From UHGV virus genome UHGV-0019869: 21,353 nucleotides of DNA; one strand, 5' to 3'. Below the pieces are notes generated by a model, which did no database searches, was not told where the DNA came from, and was given only the letters and a program-made list of their open reading frames with translations. A program made the translations under genes and the position numbers. This stretch comes from a virus. Positions 557 through 6,590 of this stretch are shown here, one piece after another; position 1 is the first letter of the stretch; every line of letters starts with the position of its first letter.

Positions 557-1156
557 TTATAATTTTCGCTCCCACCTAACACCCTCACGGATGAGTCTCA
601 ATGGTATTCCAGCATAAGATGATGATGGTCTTGATAGTTTTTTACCAACTAATGACTTAGTGCCAATAATACACCCATATGGTATTACAGAACCTTTGTT
701 TATTGTGACACCTTCACCAACCCACACATGGTCTGAGATAACAATATCTTTTGCGTGATTTATCCTCTCTCCACTTTCAATATCAATAATAGGATGCTCA
801 TCTGAAGTTCTAATATAAATAGAACTAGAGAACATGCAATCGTCACCAATTGTAATTGATTTACCTTCCATTGCGAAGAAATGCACACCAGCGGTGGTCG
901 TCCCGCTTCCAATAATTAACTTTGAACTGTTTTGCCGAATATCAATACAGCCTCTTATATTGGCTCTTTTTTTAATATGTAAGGTATTATTCCAACCAAT
1001 GATGTTTATTCTTAAATTTCTAAGAACTACACCTTCATCTATTGTAATTTTATGCCCGCTACCCTGCACATTAACTTTAACACTTTTGTCAATGAGTACT
1101 GATGGATGTACATTTATTTCATTACCACTTTCAAATTCACTGAATATATTTTCCAT
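557..1156 (-). CDS. Hexapeptide-repeat (left-handed beta-helix) acetyltransferase, 199 aa; candidate lysogenic-conversion enzyme
   Basis: The translation shows successive imperfect hexapeptide repeats with small or hydrophobic residues at regular spacing (IGDDCMF, IYIRTSDEHP, ISDHVWVGEGVTINKGSVIPYGCIIGTKSLV), typical of Maa/LacA/WcaF/NeuO-type acyltransferases. Sampled lines are AT-rich. It lies just beyond the tailspike on the same strand. Confidence 0.75.
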   Translation of the reverse strand: MENIFSEFESGNEINVHPSVLIDKSVKVNVQGSGHKITIDEGVVLRNLRINIIGWNNTLHIKKRANIRGCIDIRQNSSKLIIGSGTTTAGVHFFAMEGKSITIGDDCMFSSSIYIRTSDEHPIIDIESGERINHAKDIVISDHVWVGEGVTINKGSVIPYGCIIGTKSLVGKKLSRPSSSYAGIPLRLIREGVRWERKL

Positions 1157-1256: not shown

Positions 1257-3062
1257 TTATAGGTTTTCGAGTTTGTTCAATCTTTGCTCTAACCCCTCTA
1301 TCCTTGAAAATGCAACATCTATAGCCTTTGTAACAAACGGTATAACCTGTTCGTAGGCAATTGTTTTTACATCGCATCCATTGTTTACTAGATGATCTTG
1401 ATATATACCACAGTCAATTCCAAGTCGATCAAGTAATTCTTTAACTTGCTGTGCAAGATACCCGGCATGTTCTCTTTTCCTTTTTCTACTGCCATCTTTT
1501 TCATGTTGATGAATTCTAGTTTCAAAAATCGGATTGCCATTAGAATCATCACCAATTTTTACATTGTATTCTTCTATATAATCATCACGAAAATCCCACT
1601 TATAAAAATATGGGATTATTCCACGGACGAATGATACAGCAAGTTCTCCGTCTATTATTCGTTTATCTGCTTTATCACGCTCATCAGACCGAGTTTGCAC
1701 CGTACCATATACATAAACTGTCTGAGAAGAATTTCCTAACTGAATCTCATGATCTCCACCAACTCTGGCACGGCAGCCTAAAGCTACACAATTTAATTTC
1801 TCTTTTGCAGGTGTCCCATCAATCAAAAACCTACCAGCTTGATGTCCAAGATATACTAATTGGGTTCCAGTAGTCTCACTATCTCCTGACGCTGCACCAA
1901 CAAAAACATTATCACTTCCTGTTGTTAAATTAAAGCCGGAAGCCCTACCAATAAGAACTGAATCATTCATTTTTGTTGCTTTATATCCTGCTTGCATCCC
2001 ACAAAAAACAACACCATTTAATCCATTCTGTGACCATGCAGCTTGATACCCTATAGCAACAATATTATTGGGAGATTCCCCATATGAAGACAAACCAAGA
2101 GAAGCCTCACGTCCTAGTGCAACGTTTCCAGAACCATCCACATTTCTAAATAAGGCAGAGCGACCTGCAGCAAGATTATTACCGCCAGTTCCCGTCTCAG
2201 CACCAGAGAATGCTCCTATATAGGTATTACCACCACCAGTTGAGTTATTTTGCATTGCTGCTTGACCGACAGCAACGTTATCTCTTCCTGTTGTTGTTCG
2301 TGACCCAGCATCCGTACCAACTGAAACATTTCTCTCTCCTGATGTTAATAGTTTGCCAGCGTTATAACCAACCACTACATTATAACTACCGGTTTTATAG
2401 TTGGCATAAGAAGAACTTTGAGCGTAAATAAAAATATTACAACTACCTGTAGTTAACAGTGCTCCAGCCTCATGTCCAAGTAGAACATTGCGCTGTCCTG
2501 TTGTAAGGCTTGCACCGGCTCGTCTACCAATACCAGTATTTTCCGCACCAACAGCCTCATCTGACTCGTTACCTATAATTGATGATCCTGCTCCAACTCC
2601 GAAAAAAGCATTATTTTTCGCATATTCATTAGAAGAAAATGCATCAATTCCCCATACCGTATTACTTGGGTCAGCATAACCAGGAGAATTTTCACCAGAA
2701 AAATTTGTTAATTCCTGCCTTAACTGATCTGGAGCATATTTCATTACATTTGGGAAATAGTGCTGCTGAGAGCCATACGCATCAAAAATCGCCATTGAGT
2801 GATTTTTTATAGTCGCAAACTTACCGAATTGACCATTCAATACAGGTTGTCCAGCTTGACTTATTTTTATTGGTTGAGAAACCTTAATATATTTTCCATT
2901 CTCATTCTCAAAATAAACATCCACTTGATTATCTGGATTAGTCGGATCGGTATCAGGCTTCCCGATATAAATGCTTCCATTCGATACTGATTTAAATGTT
3001 CTTGACATTGTGAACAATTGATTAGGCATGGAAACTATAATGTTAGGTATAATGTCTGTCAT
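1257..3062 (-). CDS. Mosaic tailspike, 601 aa: P22 gp9-like N-terminal head-binding domain, Gly-rich repeat central domain, C-terminal intramolecular chaperone (peptidase S74-like) domain
   Basis: The N-terminal ~110 aa (MTDIIPNIIVSMPNQLFTMSRTFKSVSNGSIYIGKPDTDPTNPDNQ...HSMAIFDAYGSQ) closely resembles the P22 tailspike head-binding domain. The centre carries repeated G-x-x-A-G / TTG motifs. The C-terminus has SDERDK followed by GYLAQQV and IAYEQVIPFVTKAIDVAFSRIEGLEQRLNKLE, matching the autoproteolytic chaperone domain of endosialidase and T5 pb1-type fibres. GGAG RBS upstream of the ATG at 3062. Confidence 0.9.
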   Translation of the reverse strand: MTDIIPNIIVSMPNQLFTMSRTFKSVSNGSIYIGKPDTDPTNPDNQVDVYFENENGKYIKVSQPIKISQAGQPVLNGQFGKFATIKNHSMAIFDAYGSQQHYFPNVMKYAPDQLRQELTNFSGENSPGYADPSNTVWGIDAFSSNEYAKNNAFFGVGAGSSIIGNESDEAVGAENTGIGRRAGASLTTGQRNVLLGHEAGALLTTGSCNIFIYAQSSSYANYKTGSYNVVVGYNAGKLLTSGERNVSVGTDAGSRTTTGRDNVAVGQAAMQNNSTGGGNTYIGAFSGAETGTGGNNLAAGRSALFRNVDGSGNVALGREASLGLSSYGESPNNIVAIGYQAAWSQNGLNGVVFCGMQAGYKATKMNDSVLIGRASGFNLTTGSDNVFVGAASGDSETTGTQLVYLGHQAGRFLIDGTPAKEKLNCVALGCRARVGGDHEIQLGNSSQTVYVYGTVQTRSDERDKADKRIIDGELAVSFVRGIIPYFYKWDFRDDYIEEYNVKIGDDSNGNPIFETRIHQHEKDGSRKRKREHAGYLAQQVKELLDRLGIDCGIYQDHLVNNGCDVKTIAYEQVIPFVTKAIDVAFSRIEGLEQRLNKLENL

Positions 3063-3198: not shown

Positions 3199-3222
3199 AA
3201 AAAAACCCAGCCTAAGCTGGGT
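3199..3222 (-). terminator. Rho-independent terminator downstream of ant (stem cccagc / gctggg, 4-nt loop, 7-nt U-run on the minus strand)
   Basis: GC stem-loop at 3206-3221 directly followed on the minus strand by the run complementary to AAAAAAA at 3199-3205, about 20 nt after the ant stop codon. Confidence 0.6.
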
Positions 3223-3240
3223 CGTTGCGTTGGTTATCTG

Positions 3241-4143
3241 TCAGTAGTTATGTACTGAAGGAGGTAATTCTTTATTCTTAAGTCTCATCCATGCGGAAAG
3301 ATTCGTTGGTCCGTCTGGCTCATTAATATCAACATCTCGTGTATGGTTGATTAAAACATCTCTCGCCATATCGATAATACGGGAGAACTCATAACCGCAG
3401 TCATGACATCTGCCGGAATAGTTCGATTGAATTTGTTTTAGCGCCGGATACAGTTCGCGGAATAATGCCTGTGAGCGGTTGGCATAATCCCATAACCATA
3501 CAAGGCTGTTTGCTTCTTTTGCAGAAAGCTCGTTGGTTTTCTTCTCTTGTTTGCCGATGAACTCACCTTCAAGCACTACCCTGTGGATGTACTCTACAGC
3601 TTGCGGTATCTGAGATGCATCAAGCTCTTCAATACTTTCCACATTGAAACGCTGATGAATCATTGCATAAGCTTCTGGGTACATTAGATGCTTTTTGCTG
3701 ACTAGCATATTTACAGCATCACGAAGCGGAGTCCTGTCATCAACAGATGTTTTCTTACGTGCATTTTCTGCCTTTCCCTTCGTCCAGTAGTCATGCAGCA
3801 CAGTAAAGCATTCTTCCTGGTACTGAATCAGTTTATCGCGGATGTCAGCACGAACTTTCTCAGGGTTGATGCTGAACAGCCATCCATTTAACTTCTTCAA
3901 AGGAAGGCAGAGTAGCTTACGAAGCTTACCATCAGCGGCAACCATGTTCATATGAACACAGTTGAATTTGCTAATCTGCTTCATGAGTTTTGTTTGCTGC
4001 GTTGACCAGCTCATTCCAAGGTTTTCAACGATTGGCTTCATCGCAACATATGCAACTCCGGCAGCCATGGCGGTGATAATTTGCTGACCATTGAAAGGCA
4101 CGTAAGAGGTGTTCACTGCTTCTAAAATTGCTATACTATTCAT
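3241..4143 (-). CDS. ant: Antirepressor Ant, 300 aa
   Basis: From [68 protein letters not shown] the translation matches my recollection of the P22 Ant N-terminus and its 300-aa length. The ORF track's 322-aa version starts at an upstream in-frame Met inside the sar/terminator region, so I chose the ATG at 4141-4143, which has a GGAG RBS. Confidence 0.88.
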
Positions 4144-4144
4144 G

Positions 4145-4216
4145 TTGGTTTTTCTCCACGGATTTACTGACAACCGAAGCCCTGACTGTTCCCGCAGTTG
4201 GGGCTTCACTGTTTTT
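4145..4216 (+). ncRNA. sar: Candidate Sar-like antisense RNA (about 70 nt) complementary to the ant RBS and start region
   Basis: A plus-strand -10-like TATACT at 4133-4138 lies inside the ant 5' end, and a plus-strand hairpin (gaagccc 4176-4182 / gggcttc 4201-4207) is followed by TTTTT at 4212-4216. Position and size match the P22 sar antisense RNA architecture. The -35 element is weak. Confidence 0.4.
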
Positions 4217-4427
4217 GTAAGTCACTGTAGTTATAAAGCCACTGACCACTCATTCTTGCTTTGATTGACTCTACTGAATCACGGCAAGGAATGATTCCAC
4301 CTGACATCATTCTGATCTCCGTAAATTCACCGCTCCTTATCGACTCAATGCCATTAACGTTAACTAAAGATTTACCTCTACCAAGTGCATTCTCATAGCC
4401 AATCTCATCAACCTCAATAAACTTCAT
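4206..4427 (-). CDS. Hypothetical 73-aa protein inserted between arc and ant
   Basis: The ATG at 4425-4427 overlaps the arc TGA stop (ATGA overlap), with a purine-rich stretch upstream. No family recognised. This ORF occupies what I recall as a short arc-ant intercistronic region in P22. Confidence 0.5.
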
Positions 4428-4582
4428 ACCGTTATCCCCTCTCTCTTCAGGCTGTCCATCACTCGCTTATAAATCTCAGAGTTAACAGATCGCCCGTTCT
4501 CTTCAGCTACCTTGCGCACCAAATCCAATACTTCTTTAGGCCACCGCAAATTGAACTGCGGCATTTTGCTCATTCCTTTCAT
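4424..4582 (-). CDS. arc: Arc repressor (ribbon-helix-helix), 52 aa
   Basis: MKGMSKMPQFNLRWPKEVLDLVRKVAEENGRSVNSEIYKRVMDSLKREG is near-identical to P22 Arc as I recall it. The true start is the internal Met of the 73-aa ORF-track entry (ATG at 4580-4582), with a GAGGT RBS. Confidence 0.9.
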   Translation of the reverse strand: MKGMSKMPQFNLRWPKEVLDLVRKVAEENGRSVNSEIYKRVMDSLKREGITV

Positions 4583-4596
4583 ATTTACCTCACAAT

Positions 4597-4617
4597 ATAG
4601 GTCCACGGTGGACCTAT
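4597..4617. promoter_or_regulatory. Mnt operator: perfect 21-bp palindrome ataggtccacggtggacctat
   Basis: Perfect dyad read from the sequence. Its core GGTCCACGGTGGACC matches the P22 Mnt operator as I recall it. It lies in the divergent arc/mnt control region, which should contain the Pant and Pmnt promoters. Confidence 0.7.
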
Positions 4618-4624
4618 TGAGAAT

Positions 4625-4645
4625 ATAGTAGAGTGCTTCTATCAT
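4625..4645. promoter_or_regulatory. Arc operator: atagtagagtgcttctatcat (imperfect dyad with TAGA half-sites)
   Basis: Matches the 21-bp P22 Arc operator as I recall it, located between the arc and mnt start codons. Confidence 0.7.
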
Positions 4646-4672
4646 GTCAATACACTAACTTGGGGTGATGGC

Positions 4673-4927
4673 ATGGCTAGAGACGATCCGCACTTTAACT
4701 TCCGTATGCCTTTGGAAGTAAGAGAAAAATTGAAATTAAGAGCAGAGGCTAACGGAAGGTCAATGAACTCTGAGTTATTACAAATCGTTCAGGATGCTCT
4801 CTCAAAGCCATCATCAATTGTAGGCTATCGAGACGAAGCTGAGCGAGTCGCGGATGAGCAATCTGACGTTGTTAAGAAGATGGTCTTTGAAACGCTGAAA
4901 AATATTTATAGCAAAAGTAAGTTATAG
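4673..4927 (+). CDS. mnt: Mnt repressor (ribbon-helix-helix), 84 aa
   Basis: MARDDPHFNFRMPLEVREKLKLRAEANGRSMNSELLQIVQDALSKPS... is near-identical to P22 Mnt as I recall it. Divergent from arc, as in immI. Confidence 0.9.
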   Translation: MARDDPHFNFRMPLEVREKLKLRAEANGRSMNSELLQIVQDALSKPSSIVGYRDEAERVADEQSDVVKKMVFETLKNIYSKSKL

Positions 4928-4976: not shown

Positions 4977-5696
4977 ATGAAAAAAAGTAATGGACTCACA
5001 TTAAAACTTGACGGAACCACCCCTGGCCAGCTGTCAATGGCTAAGTTGGTCAAGTATATGTCTGCTCTCGTAGATCTATACGGTTCTGCAGATTCTGTTC
5101 ACTTCGACTGTGTAAGTGAAGGATCGGCTGACTTAAATGCATGGGTCGATAATGATATTTGTTATAACGCTGTCATAGCAAGGGCCTCTCTCTCAGCCAA
5201 AGAGAAATCACCCGCGTATCAAAAAATTGTTAATTTACTGGAGCATGATGGTTTTTCAGCGAAACTACTCGGACGAAACCACTCAACCATTATCGCATTC
5301 CCGCGAGTAAAAAAGGAGCCAATCCCTTTACTCATAACAAAAACGTCAGAAGTTCAAGGAAGGCTATACAGTGTTGGCGGAAAAGACAACTCAATACCTG
5401 TGCGTATTGAGGGAGCCAACGGTGAAACATTCAAGTGCGAGGCAACCCCTGATTTGGCGGCAGCTCTTGGGTCCCATCTATTCAAATATATTAGGGTTAA
5501 AGGAGATGGGTGCTGGGAAAAAAAGAACAACAAATGGGAGCTAAAGAAACTAAAAATAACTTCATTTGTATTGCTCAAAAAATCATCACTCAAGGATGCT
5601 ATTAATGCTATCAAGCAAGTTCCTGGAGATCAGTGGTCCGAGGAACGCGATGTTGATTCAATCCTTAGGACTCTGAGGAAGATAAATTGCGAGTAA
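4977..5696 (+). CDS. Hypothetical 239-aa protein, first gene of the accessory cassette downstream of mnt
   Basis: Long ORF in a markedly AT-rich segment (about 30% G+C in a sampled line, against 40-63% in sampled structural-gene lines). Its 3' end overlaps the next gene's start by 10 nt. No recognisable catalytic motif. Weak RBS. Confidence 0.65.
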   Translation: MKKSNGLTLKLDGTTPGQLSMAKLVKYMSALVDLYGSADSVHFDCVSEGSADLNAWVDNDICYNAVIARASLSAKEKSPAYQKIVNLLEHDGFSAKLLGRNHSTIIAFPRVKKEPIPLLITKTSEVQGRLYSVGGKDNSIPVRIEGANGETFKCEATPDLAAALGSHLFKYIRVKGDGCWEKKNNKWELKKLKITSFVLLKKSSLKDAINAIKQVPGDQWSEERDVDSILRTLRKINCE

Positions 5697-6235
5697 TTTT
5701 AGATACCAATATTCTGGTATACCTACTATCAGATATAGAACACGATTATAGATTATCTGACCCTATACTTGGTTCTGAGATTCCAGATGCCAAAAGAAGA
5801 GCAGAAGCTCTTGTTGATCGAATAGATAACAAGAACGGGACAATCATCGTTCCAACTCCTGTATTGGCGGAGTTTTTAGTTGGAATCCATAAAGATTACC
5901 AACAAGAAAAACTGAATGTTATCAAATCGTTATCGTGCTTCGAAACTGTATCATTTGATGAGTTGGCTGCTATTGAATGCGCATCGATACCAACATTAAA
6001 AGAATTAAGGAAAATTAGCACAGAAGGTACAGCAAACAAAATTAAGTTTGACAGACAAATAATAGCAATTGCAAGAGCAATTAATGCTGACGAGGTATGG
6101 ACTCATGATAAGGGAGTGTTTGAGCGTTGCAAAAGTCTCAATATTCCTGTGTTCACATTATCATCAATAGAACCAATTCCGGTTCAAAGTCTCATGGAGT
6201 TCTTACACGATTCAGACGATCAGAGATTACACTAA
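5687..6235 (+). CDS. PIN-domain nuclease-like protein, 182 aa (TTG start)
   Basis: The N-terminal ILDTNIL motif with an invariant Asp, and downstream acidic residues (AEFLVG; FDRQIIAIARAINADEVWTHDKG), are typical of VapC/PIN folds. The TTG at 5687-5689 is preceded by GAGGAA at 5675-5680. Confidence 0.75.
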   Translation: MRVILDTNILVYLLSDIEHDYRLSDPILGSEIPDAKRRAEALVDRIDNKNGTIIVPTPVLAEFLVGIHKDYQQEKLNVIKSLSCFETVSFDELAAIECASIPTLKELRKISTEGTANKIKFDRQIIAIARAINADEVWTHDKGVFERCKSLNIPVFTLSSIEPIPVQSLMEFLHDSDDQRLH

Positions 6236-6279: not shown

Positions 6280-6362
6280 ACATAAAGCTATAGCCAAAAG
6301 TGGACAAACCTTTATCTCACTCCAAACCATCTGGTATCCTGCACAAAACTAAGGAGGTTGGT

Positions 6363-6590
6363 GTGAAGCGATGGTTCCTCATAATTACTGTTTTCGCGAT
6401 CATTTACACTATTTTCCCTGCATTAAAAGCACCAATGCAAATAATTTCGCTTGCAATAATTGCAATTGGTGCTTTCATTGCAGTAGCCGTACTTGTGTTT
6501 AAGGTTTTAAAGTTTTTAGTTTGGCTATCAAAAGATGATGGATGCAAAGTTCATCAAGAAAAAGAAGGCAAAATAACCAAAGTTGACTAA
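6363..6590 (+). CDS. Small hydrophobic (predicted two-helix membrane) protein, about 75 aa
   Basis: AGGAGG at 6352-6357 lies 5 nt before the GTG at 6363. The product WFLIITVFAIIYTIFPALKAPMQIISLAIIAIGAFIAVAVLVFKVLKFLVWL is strongly hydrophobic. The ORF track's alternative start at 6300 lacks an RBS. The stop overlaps the convergent gp16-like stop. Confidence 0.55.
   Translation: MKRWFLIITVFAIIYTIFPALKAPMQIISLAIIAIGAFIAVAVLVFKVLKFLVWLSKDDGCKVHQEKEGKITKVD

Follow-up and report, generated by a model that had tools for sequence, protein, structure and literature searches.

A predicted P22-type sar antisense RNA gene in the immI region of a P22-like Escherichia coli prophage

The segment at the 5' end of the antirepressor gene ant in the viral genome UHGV-0019869 is very probably a sar gene, carried by a P22-like (Lederbergvirus) prophage of E. 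coli. Throughout, the window refers to the whole stretch of DNA analysed, 21,353 nucleotides in length. Within it, the Rfam family RF00262 (sar RNA) matches the plus strand at 4144–4210 over the full model (1–68), scoring 87.7 bits where the gathering score is 43 (E = 1.3e-17). It is the sole Rfam match in the window. Our assignment is based on this curated covariance model, on near-identity to the sar RNA and the sar promoter (Psar) of phages P22 and epsilon34, and on the position of the element within the mnt/arc/ant/tailspike arrangement of immI. These features support its reading as an ordinary, well-preserved P22 sar antisense RNA gene, which is an already known element in a known context. 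A first-pass annotation, made from the letters alone, had proposed that a plus-strand TATACT −10 inside the start of ant, together with a hairpin and T-run about 70 nt downstream, reproduces the architecture of P22 sar, and the same comparisons bear this out. TATACT is present at 4132–4137, placing the start given in that annotation, 4133, one base inside the hexamer. The hairpin occupies 4176–4207 and is followed by a T-run at 4212–4216, giving a predicted RNA of 67–73 nt when counted from 4144; the stable transcript expected of sar RNA measures about 68–69 nt.

The window comprises the late region of a P22-like prophage, encoded on the minus strand, with terminase, portal, coat and ejection proteins followed by immI and the tailspike (Table 1). 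The immI region is identified by Pfam matches to Arc, Repressor_Mnt, P22_AR and Head_binding, and P22-like late genes are found across the window. The late genes have intact ORFs, as do ant, arc and mnt. The two promoters Pant and Pmnt are divergent and lie within 4617–4650, and the arc gene of the window aligns with P22 arc except in its last codons. Prophage DNA in several E. coli chromosomes matches the interval 4100–4700 with 100% identity, and Lederbergvirus phages, including P22 and epsilon34, match it at 86–95% (BLAST). This E. coli prophage carries a complete P22-type immI control circuit, composed of Mnt, Arc, sar and Ant.

Table 1. Positions of the sar element and of the surrounding immI features in the window
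Feature	Position	Strand	Basis
Tailspike	1257–3062	−	Pfam Head_binding
Intrinsic terminator, 3' of ant	3204–3223	−	Terminator scan; P22 and epsilon34 annotate a terminator at the corresponding site
ant (antirepressor, 300 aa; predicted sar target)	3241–4143	−	Pfam P22_AR_N (2.8e-45) and P22_AR_C (2.3e-28); syntenic with P22 ant
ant signals	SD GGAG 4157–4154; AUG 4143–4141	−	Sequence
Psar (predicted)	4109–4137	+	−35-like GTGTTC 4109–4114; 17-bp spacer; TG 4129–4130; −10 TATACT 4132–4137
sar antisense RNA, predicted 67–73 nt	4144–4216	+	RF00262 match; homology to P22 sar
sar stem-loop I	4144–4171	+	6-bp stem GUUGGU/ACUGAC, minimum-free-energy fold
sar intrinsic terminator (predicted)	4176–4216	+	14-bp stem 4176–4189/4194–4207; loop UCCC; ACUG; UUUUU 4212–4216
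ORF73 (73 aa)	4206–4427	−	phrog_11805, function unknown
arc (Arc repressor; first gene of Pant operon)	4424–4585	−	Pfam Arc (1.8e-27)
Pmnt, TTGAGA-17-TATCAT	4617–4645	+	Promoter scan; same hexamers at annotated P22 promoter
Pant, TTGACA-17-TATATT	4650–4622	−	Promoter scan; same hexamers at annotated P22 promoter
mnt (maintenance repressor)	4673–4927	+	Pfam Arc and Repressor_Mnt

Several genes around immI deserve mention in their own right. The tailspike has a P22-type head-binding N-terminus joined to a different receptor-binding part, with an intramolecular chaperone domain (Peptidase_S74) at its end; such mosaicism is typical of host-range swapping. A 199-aa ORF (557–1156, minus strand) downstream of this gene resembles hexapeptide-repeat acetyltransferases, with weak, below-cutoff matches to WbbJ, WcaF and other sugar O-acetyltransferases, and may be an O-antigen modification (serotype conversion) gene. 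On the plus strand, at 4977–6235, two overlapping genes encode a 239-aa protein without a Pfam family (phrog_19868) and a 182-aa protein with a PIN domain (phrog_21691), the latter with weak VapC-like matches. This pair occupies the site of P22 orf59a and sieA, gave no PADLOC match, and could be a toxin–antitoxin or exclusion module. Between the PIN gene and the gene for a gene-16-like ejection protein, the plus strand encodes a 96-aa predicted membrane protein of unknown function (6300–6590; phrog_7294). Outside the window, at 3059607–3072207 of the chromosome NZ_CP091756, an identical immI block lies between torT and appA in a prophage remnant that IS2/IS3 elements flank and interrupt, reduced to a stretch that runs from the tailspike to a truncated ejection gene.

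The annotated start of P22 sar maps to G4144, the base just past the complement of the ant ATG, and the 3' end is predicted to fall at or within the T-run. The resulting RNA is antisense to the antirepressor leader, covers its Shine–Dalgarno (SD) sequence, and begins next to the ant start codon. For the 73-nt RNA the folding energy is −29.4 kcal/mol (z = −5.1), a value reached by none of 200 shuffled sequences. Its dot-bracket structure is the same as that of P22 sar, with two hairpins, comparable energies (−29.4 versus −29.5 kcal/mol) and z about −5 for both. Both the fold and a terminator scan identify the second stem-loop as an intrinsic terminator. Loop I holds the anti-SD sequence CUCC (4154–4157), complementary to the GGAG of ant, which is located 10 nt upstream of the AUG. 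Furthermore, sar is perfectly complementary to the whole 62-nt intercistronic leader between ORF73 and ant, to the ORF73 stop codon, and to the last two to three sense codons of ORF73.

By homology, we infer that sar is transcribed in this prophage and represses ant. On the model of P22, transcription from Pant would produce an arc–ORF73–ant message, and sar RNA would then pair with the ant leader, covering the SD and AUG against ribosomes. Ant synthesis would be lowered post-transcriptionally, with the antirepressor kept in check alongside Arc and Mnt. In P22 itself, sar represses ant translation (PMC12197685). Because the stop codon of ORF73 lies inside sar (nt 63–65), the duplex between sar and the leader would cover the ORF73 termination site too.

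Psar is located inside the 5' end of ant, within codons 3–12, with TATACT in codons 3–4. It is directed away from ant and is convergent with Pant. The 29-bp promoter block aligns base for base with the annotated Psar of P22 (BK000583), with a single difference, 4114 A>C, which is also present in epsilon34 and affects the last base of the annotated −35. The P22 and epsilon34 records annotate Psar, sar and the terminator at positions corresponding to those in the window. The −35 hexamer GTGTTC is poor. A generic sigma-70 consensus scan did not flag Psar in the window; the scan is uninformative for this promoter, since it missed the annotated Psar of P22 too. The sequence supports Psar as a probable extended −10 promoter with a weak −35, and natural variation, described below, agrees.

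The terminator hairpin contains 14 pairs (7 G–C) and a 4-nt loop, followed by ACTGTTTTTG, and is the top-ranked terminator-like site on the plus strand in the terminator scan. Its stem is invariant in 22 of 22 aligned loci. The hairpin folds well on the plus strand only, because three G·U pairs in the stem become A·C mismatches on the ant-mRNA strand. Accordingly strand-specific, the fold has z = −5.1 on the plus strand versus −1.0 on the minus strand, where it is no better than shuffled sequences. We also considered, and rejected, a terminator that works in both directions and acts on Pant transcripts or late ones, as no U-run follows the hairpin on the minus strand and the fold there is weak.

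The main departure from P22 lies immediately beyond this hairpin. Homology to P22 ends at GGGGCTTCA, with 4208 as the last common base, gives way to an insert of ~220 bp, and resumes in the last codons of arc. The insert constitutes ORF73, between arc and the sar terminator; P22 has no ORF73 at this spot. The start of ORF73 overlaps the arc stop (ATGA, 4424–4427), and its TGA (complement TCA, 4206–4208) covers the last two bases of the terminator stem, an overlap that the first-pass annotation had correctly pointed out. Read on the opposite strand, its final codons, CAA AAA CAG TGA, give the new sar tail, UCACUGUUUUUG. The insert is outside sar: Psar, the sar body and the hairpin are untouched, and only the tail is replaced. 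The P22 tail, AACUUUAC, fails a simple T-run criterion that the tail in the window passes, so that the insert appears, if anything, to improve the sar U-run by making it longer than in P22. Antisense control of ant had been proposed to be preserved despite the inserted ORF. The proposal is supported in that sar is intact in sequence, but the implied tension was overstated, because the insert starts just past the stem (4208) and touches only the sar tail, and because about 40% of the sampled loci, among the matches listed, bear small ORFs at the same place.

ORF73 showed no match to any Pfam, NCBIfam or PADLOC family at default thresholds and no sequence match in the PDB. It is present in 51 of 5426 complete E. 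coli genomes, in the phages 611R6 and Emek, and in 16 IMG/VR contigs; a search of one genome per species (GTDB) found no relatives. Word-indexed and exhaustive protein searches returned a few near-identical proteins and one relative with 60% identity. By sequence, ORF73 is an orphan family, apparently confined to P22-like immI regions. Its 15 variable sites, 6 synonymous and 9 non-synonymous, are too few to decide on selection. An AlphaFold model (pLDDT 79) resembles the DNA-binding domains of RemA and LytTR and has an FlbD-like fold. Matches in BFVD include many small phage proteins labelled FlbD-like (TM about 0.7, best E = 5e-4), and the Pfam FlbD family matches 6 of 6 ORF73 family members below cutoff (E = 0.007–0.1). 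We regard a RemA/LytTR/FlbD-like small beta protein as a lead suggested by the modelling, and not as an assignment.

One could suppose that the sar homologue is an inherited relic, silent or irrelevant here and kept only through recent acquisition from a P22-type phage. The P22-type block is about 97% identical to P22, which leaves little time for decay; the −35 hexamer is weak, with one more mismatch to consensus than the P22 hexamer; and the most similar chromosomal copy inspected (NZ_CP091756) lies in an IS-cut prophage remnant. Moreover, the P22-type class is nearly identical in sequence, and conservation within that class alone says little. The comparison extends to loci with other ant 5' ends, where the sar 5' half differs. 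Among loci found through ORF73 alone, 17 of 17 carry an Rfam sar match at the same offset. The match recurs at that offset in two E. coli prophages where the ant 5' end differs, and at the locus of the 60%-identical ORF73 relative. The loci retrieved with ORF73 include at least four other ant 5' ends, and hence other sar 5' halves. With each of these halves, the RNA again adopts the two-hairpin shape, with energies of about −29 to −32 kcal/mol. The promoter arrangement nTGnnn-17-TGC-TAnnCT-6 nt-+1 is kept across at least five different Ant N-termini, one of which is MKSIATAV.

A pattern scan of IMG/VR with the terminator hairpin returned at least 120 loci, 109 of them usable; as the census was retrieved by the hairpin pattern itself, it cannot speak to conservation of the hairpin. 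The plan nTGnnn-17-TGn-TAnnnT-6 nt-+1, with all three promoter features, is kept in 104 of the 109 usable loci among the matches listed. These 109 loci, again among the matches listed, contain 35 distinct sar 5' domains, every one of which folds with a stem anchored at nt 1. In 12 divergent classes, an uninterrupted stem of 4–8 bp starts from nt 1 with the anti-SD in the loop, a length that shuffled sequences reach in 0.4–38% of trials, depending on the class. Between classes, both partners have changed at all six positions of stem I while pairing is largely kept: the pairs read GC UA UG GU GC UA in class 1, UA CG GC UA UU AU in class 2, and UA CG AU AU UG AU in class 3, in a 3'-anchored register that we chose ourselves. 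Column-wise covariation on MAFFT alignments detected none for stem I, because the classes are one column out of register; sliding the register by +1 yields three stem I pairs with compensatory changes. The 3'-anchored pair table and the per-class shuffle tests were used in place of the column-wise analysis. This comparative variation agrees with, and supports, a stem I that starts at +1.

Taken across divergent 5' halves, the persistence of the promoter plan, stem I and the terminator points to continued selection in this phage group rather than mere recent descent. These three elements persist across 35 distinct 5' halves (among the matches listed) and next to several unrelated upstream genes, and in the window the ORFs of ant, arc, mnt and the late genes are uninterrupted, all of which speaks against a silent relic. 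We consider such a relic quite improbable.

The same census shows the position occupied by ORF73 to be a recurrent one. Between arc and ant, a small ORF other than Arc is present in 45 of the 109 sar-bearing IMG/VR loci (about 40%; among the matches listed). The gene that ends at the terminator, counted over these 109 loci among the matches listed, is Arc in 59, a CxxC zinc-finger type in 19 (4 more, truncated, are counted under others), a 57-aa ORF in 9, ORF73 in 6, an 89-aa membrane protein in 5, and others in 6, with none found in 5. Examples of such ORFs lie at 1834–2016 in locus L025 and at 1834–2007 in locus L026. One TGA, embedded where the terminator stem ends, is the shared stop of all 45 non-Arc ORFs and of 12 Arc alleles (among the matches listed). 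The penultimate sense codon is AAA or GAA and the last is CAG, AGT or CGT (K/E then Q/S/R), so the U-run of the terminator is always encoded. Three of the non-Arc ORFs were inspected at the other end, and in all three the start overlaps the arc stop.

These observations raise the possibility, which we put forward tentatively and hold to be less probable than its absence, that the Pant operon contains a gene-cassette slot, with the sar terminator as its fixed wall. If this is true, the ORFs in the slot could be early accessory genes that replace one another, for example additional immI regulators or anti-defence factors, and could be expressed together with Arc just after infection; ORF73 would then belong to the set as a DNA-binding protein of the RemA/FlbD-like type, and the slot would owe its shape to the need for an intact sar. 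The U-run is maintained even where the last codons of unrelated genes must encode it. The pattern also indicates a set of small, uncharacterised genes that would be transcribed together with arc. The epsilon34 genome paper describes an ‘ant moron’ in rapid flux (PMC2629481), and a non-exhaustive literature search found no description of this specific arc–ant slot. The only aspect of the locus that we regard as new, and mildly so, is that the sar terminator marks a place in the Pant operon where small genes are repeatedly inserted.

The boundary-like appearance of the hairpin, with homology breakpoints at both of its edges, varying ant 5' ends at one edge and, at the other, either Arc or small ORFs of at least eight unrelated kinds, might also be taken to mean that it acts mainly on the other strand or as DNA, as a part of the arc–ant mRNA leader with a structural or processing role, or as a recombination linker joining modules, with the antisense role secondary, but the three A·C mismatches on the ant-mRNA strand, the minus-strand z of −1.0 and the lack of a minus-strand U-run after the hairpin make this even less probable than a relic, and a boundary role would be compatible with that of a sar terminator without replacing it.

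The predicted sar gene, with its terminator on the plus strand, is best understood by comparison with known relatives. The sar RNA of P22 was reportedly the subject of work by Liao et al. in 1987 and Wu et al. in 1987 (Genes Dev 1:197 and 1:204). P22 and the window share the promoter block, both hairpins, the anti-SD loop and a location opposite the ant leader. Of the first 65 nt of sar, 63 are identical, the substitutions being 4159 in loop I and 4191 in loop II; with the −35 region included and up to the last base of the terminator stem, the two sequences differ at three positions (4114, 4159 and 4191). The tail is ACUGUUUUU in the window versus AACUUUAC in P22, and the gene ending at the terminator is ORF73 in the window versus arc in P22. 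The upstream stop codon is inside sar (nt 63–65) in the window, whereas it is at the very end of sar in P22, and the intercistronic leader measures 62 nt compared with 68 nt. The sar RNA of P22 has been recovered in small-RNA sequencing of P22 infection (PMC13397905).

Epsilon34 (EU570103), in which sar is annotated by similarity to P22, is identical to the window through the hairpin, including the variants at 4114, 4159 and 4191. It differs in that arc directly adjoins the terminator and the tail is of the P22 type. The arc–ORF73–sar–ant order of the window, with an Rfam sar match at the same offset, is found in Escherichia phage vB_EcoP-611R6 (ON470589) and Salmonella phage Emek (JQ806763), and sar is unannotated in both records. 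The arc/mnt pair of 611R6 differs from that of the window, while in Emek the ant 5' end differs, and therefore the sar 5' half differs as well. In chromosomes, the sar hairpin occurs in 269 of 5426 complete E. coli genomes, and no RNA feature is annotated under any of them among the matches listed. RefSeq and phage annotations of such prophages omit sar.

A functional parallel is provided by the c4 RNA of P1 and P7, which is like sar in its action and belongs to a different type of phage, with an unrelated sequence. The c4 RNA is cut from the same transcript as its target, and is not made from a convergent promoter. As a small RNA, it blocks translation of an antirepressor (ant) by pairing in the region of the ribosome-binding site (PMC12197685).
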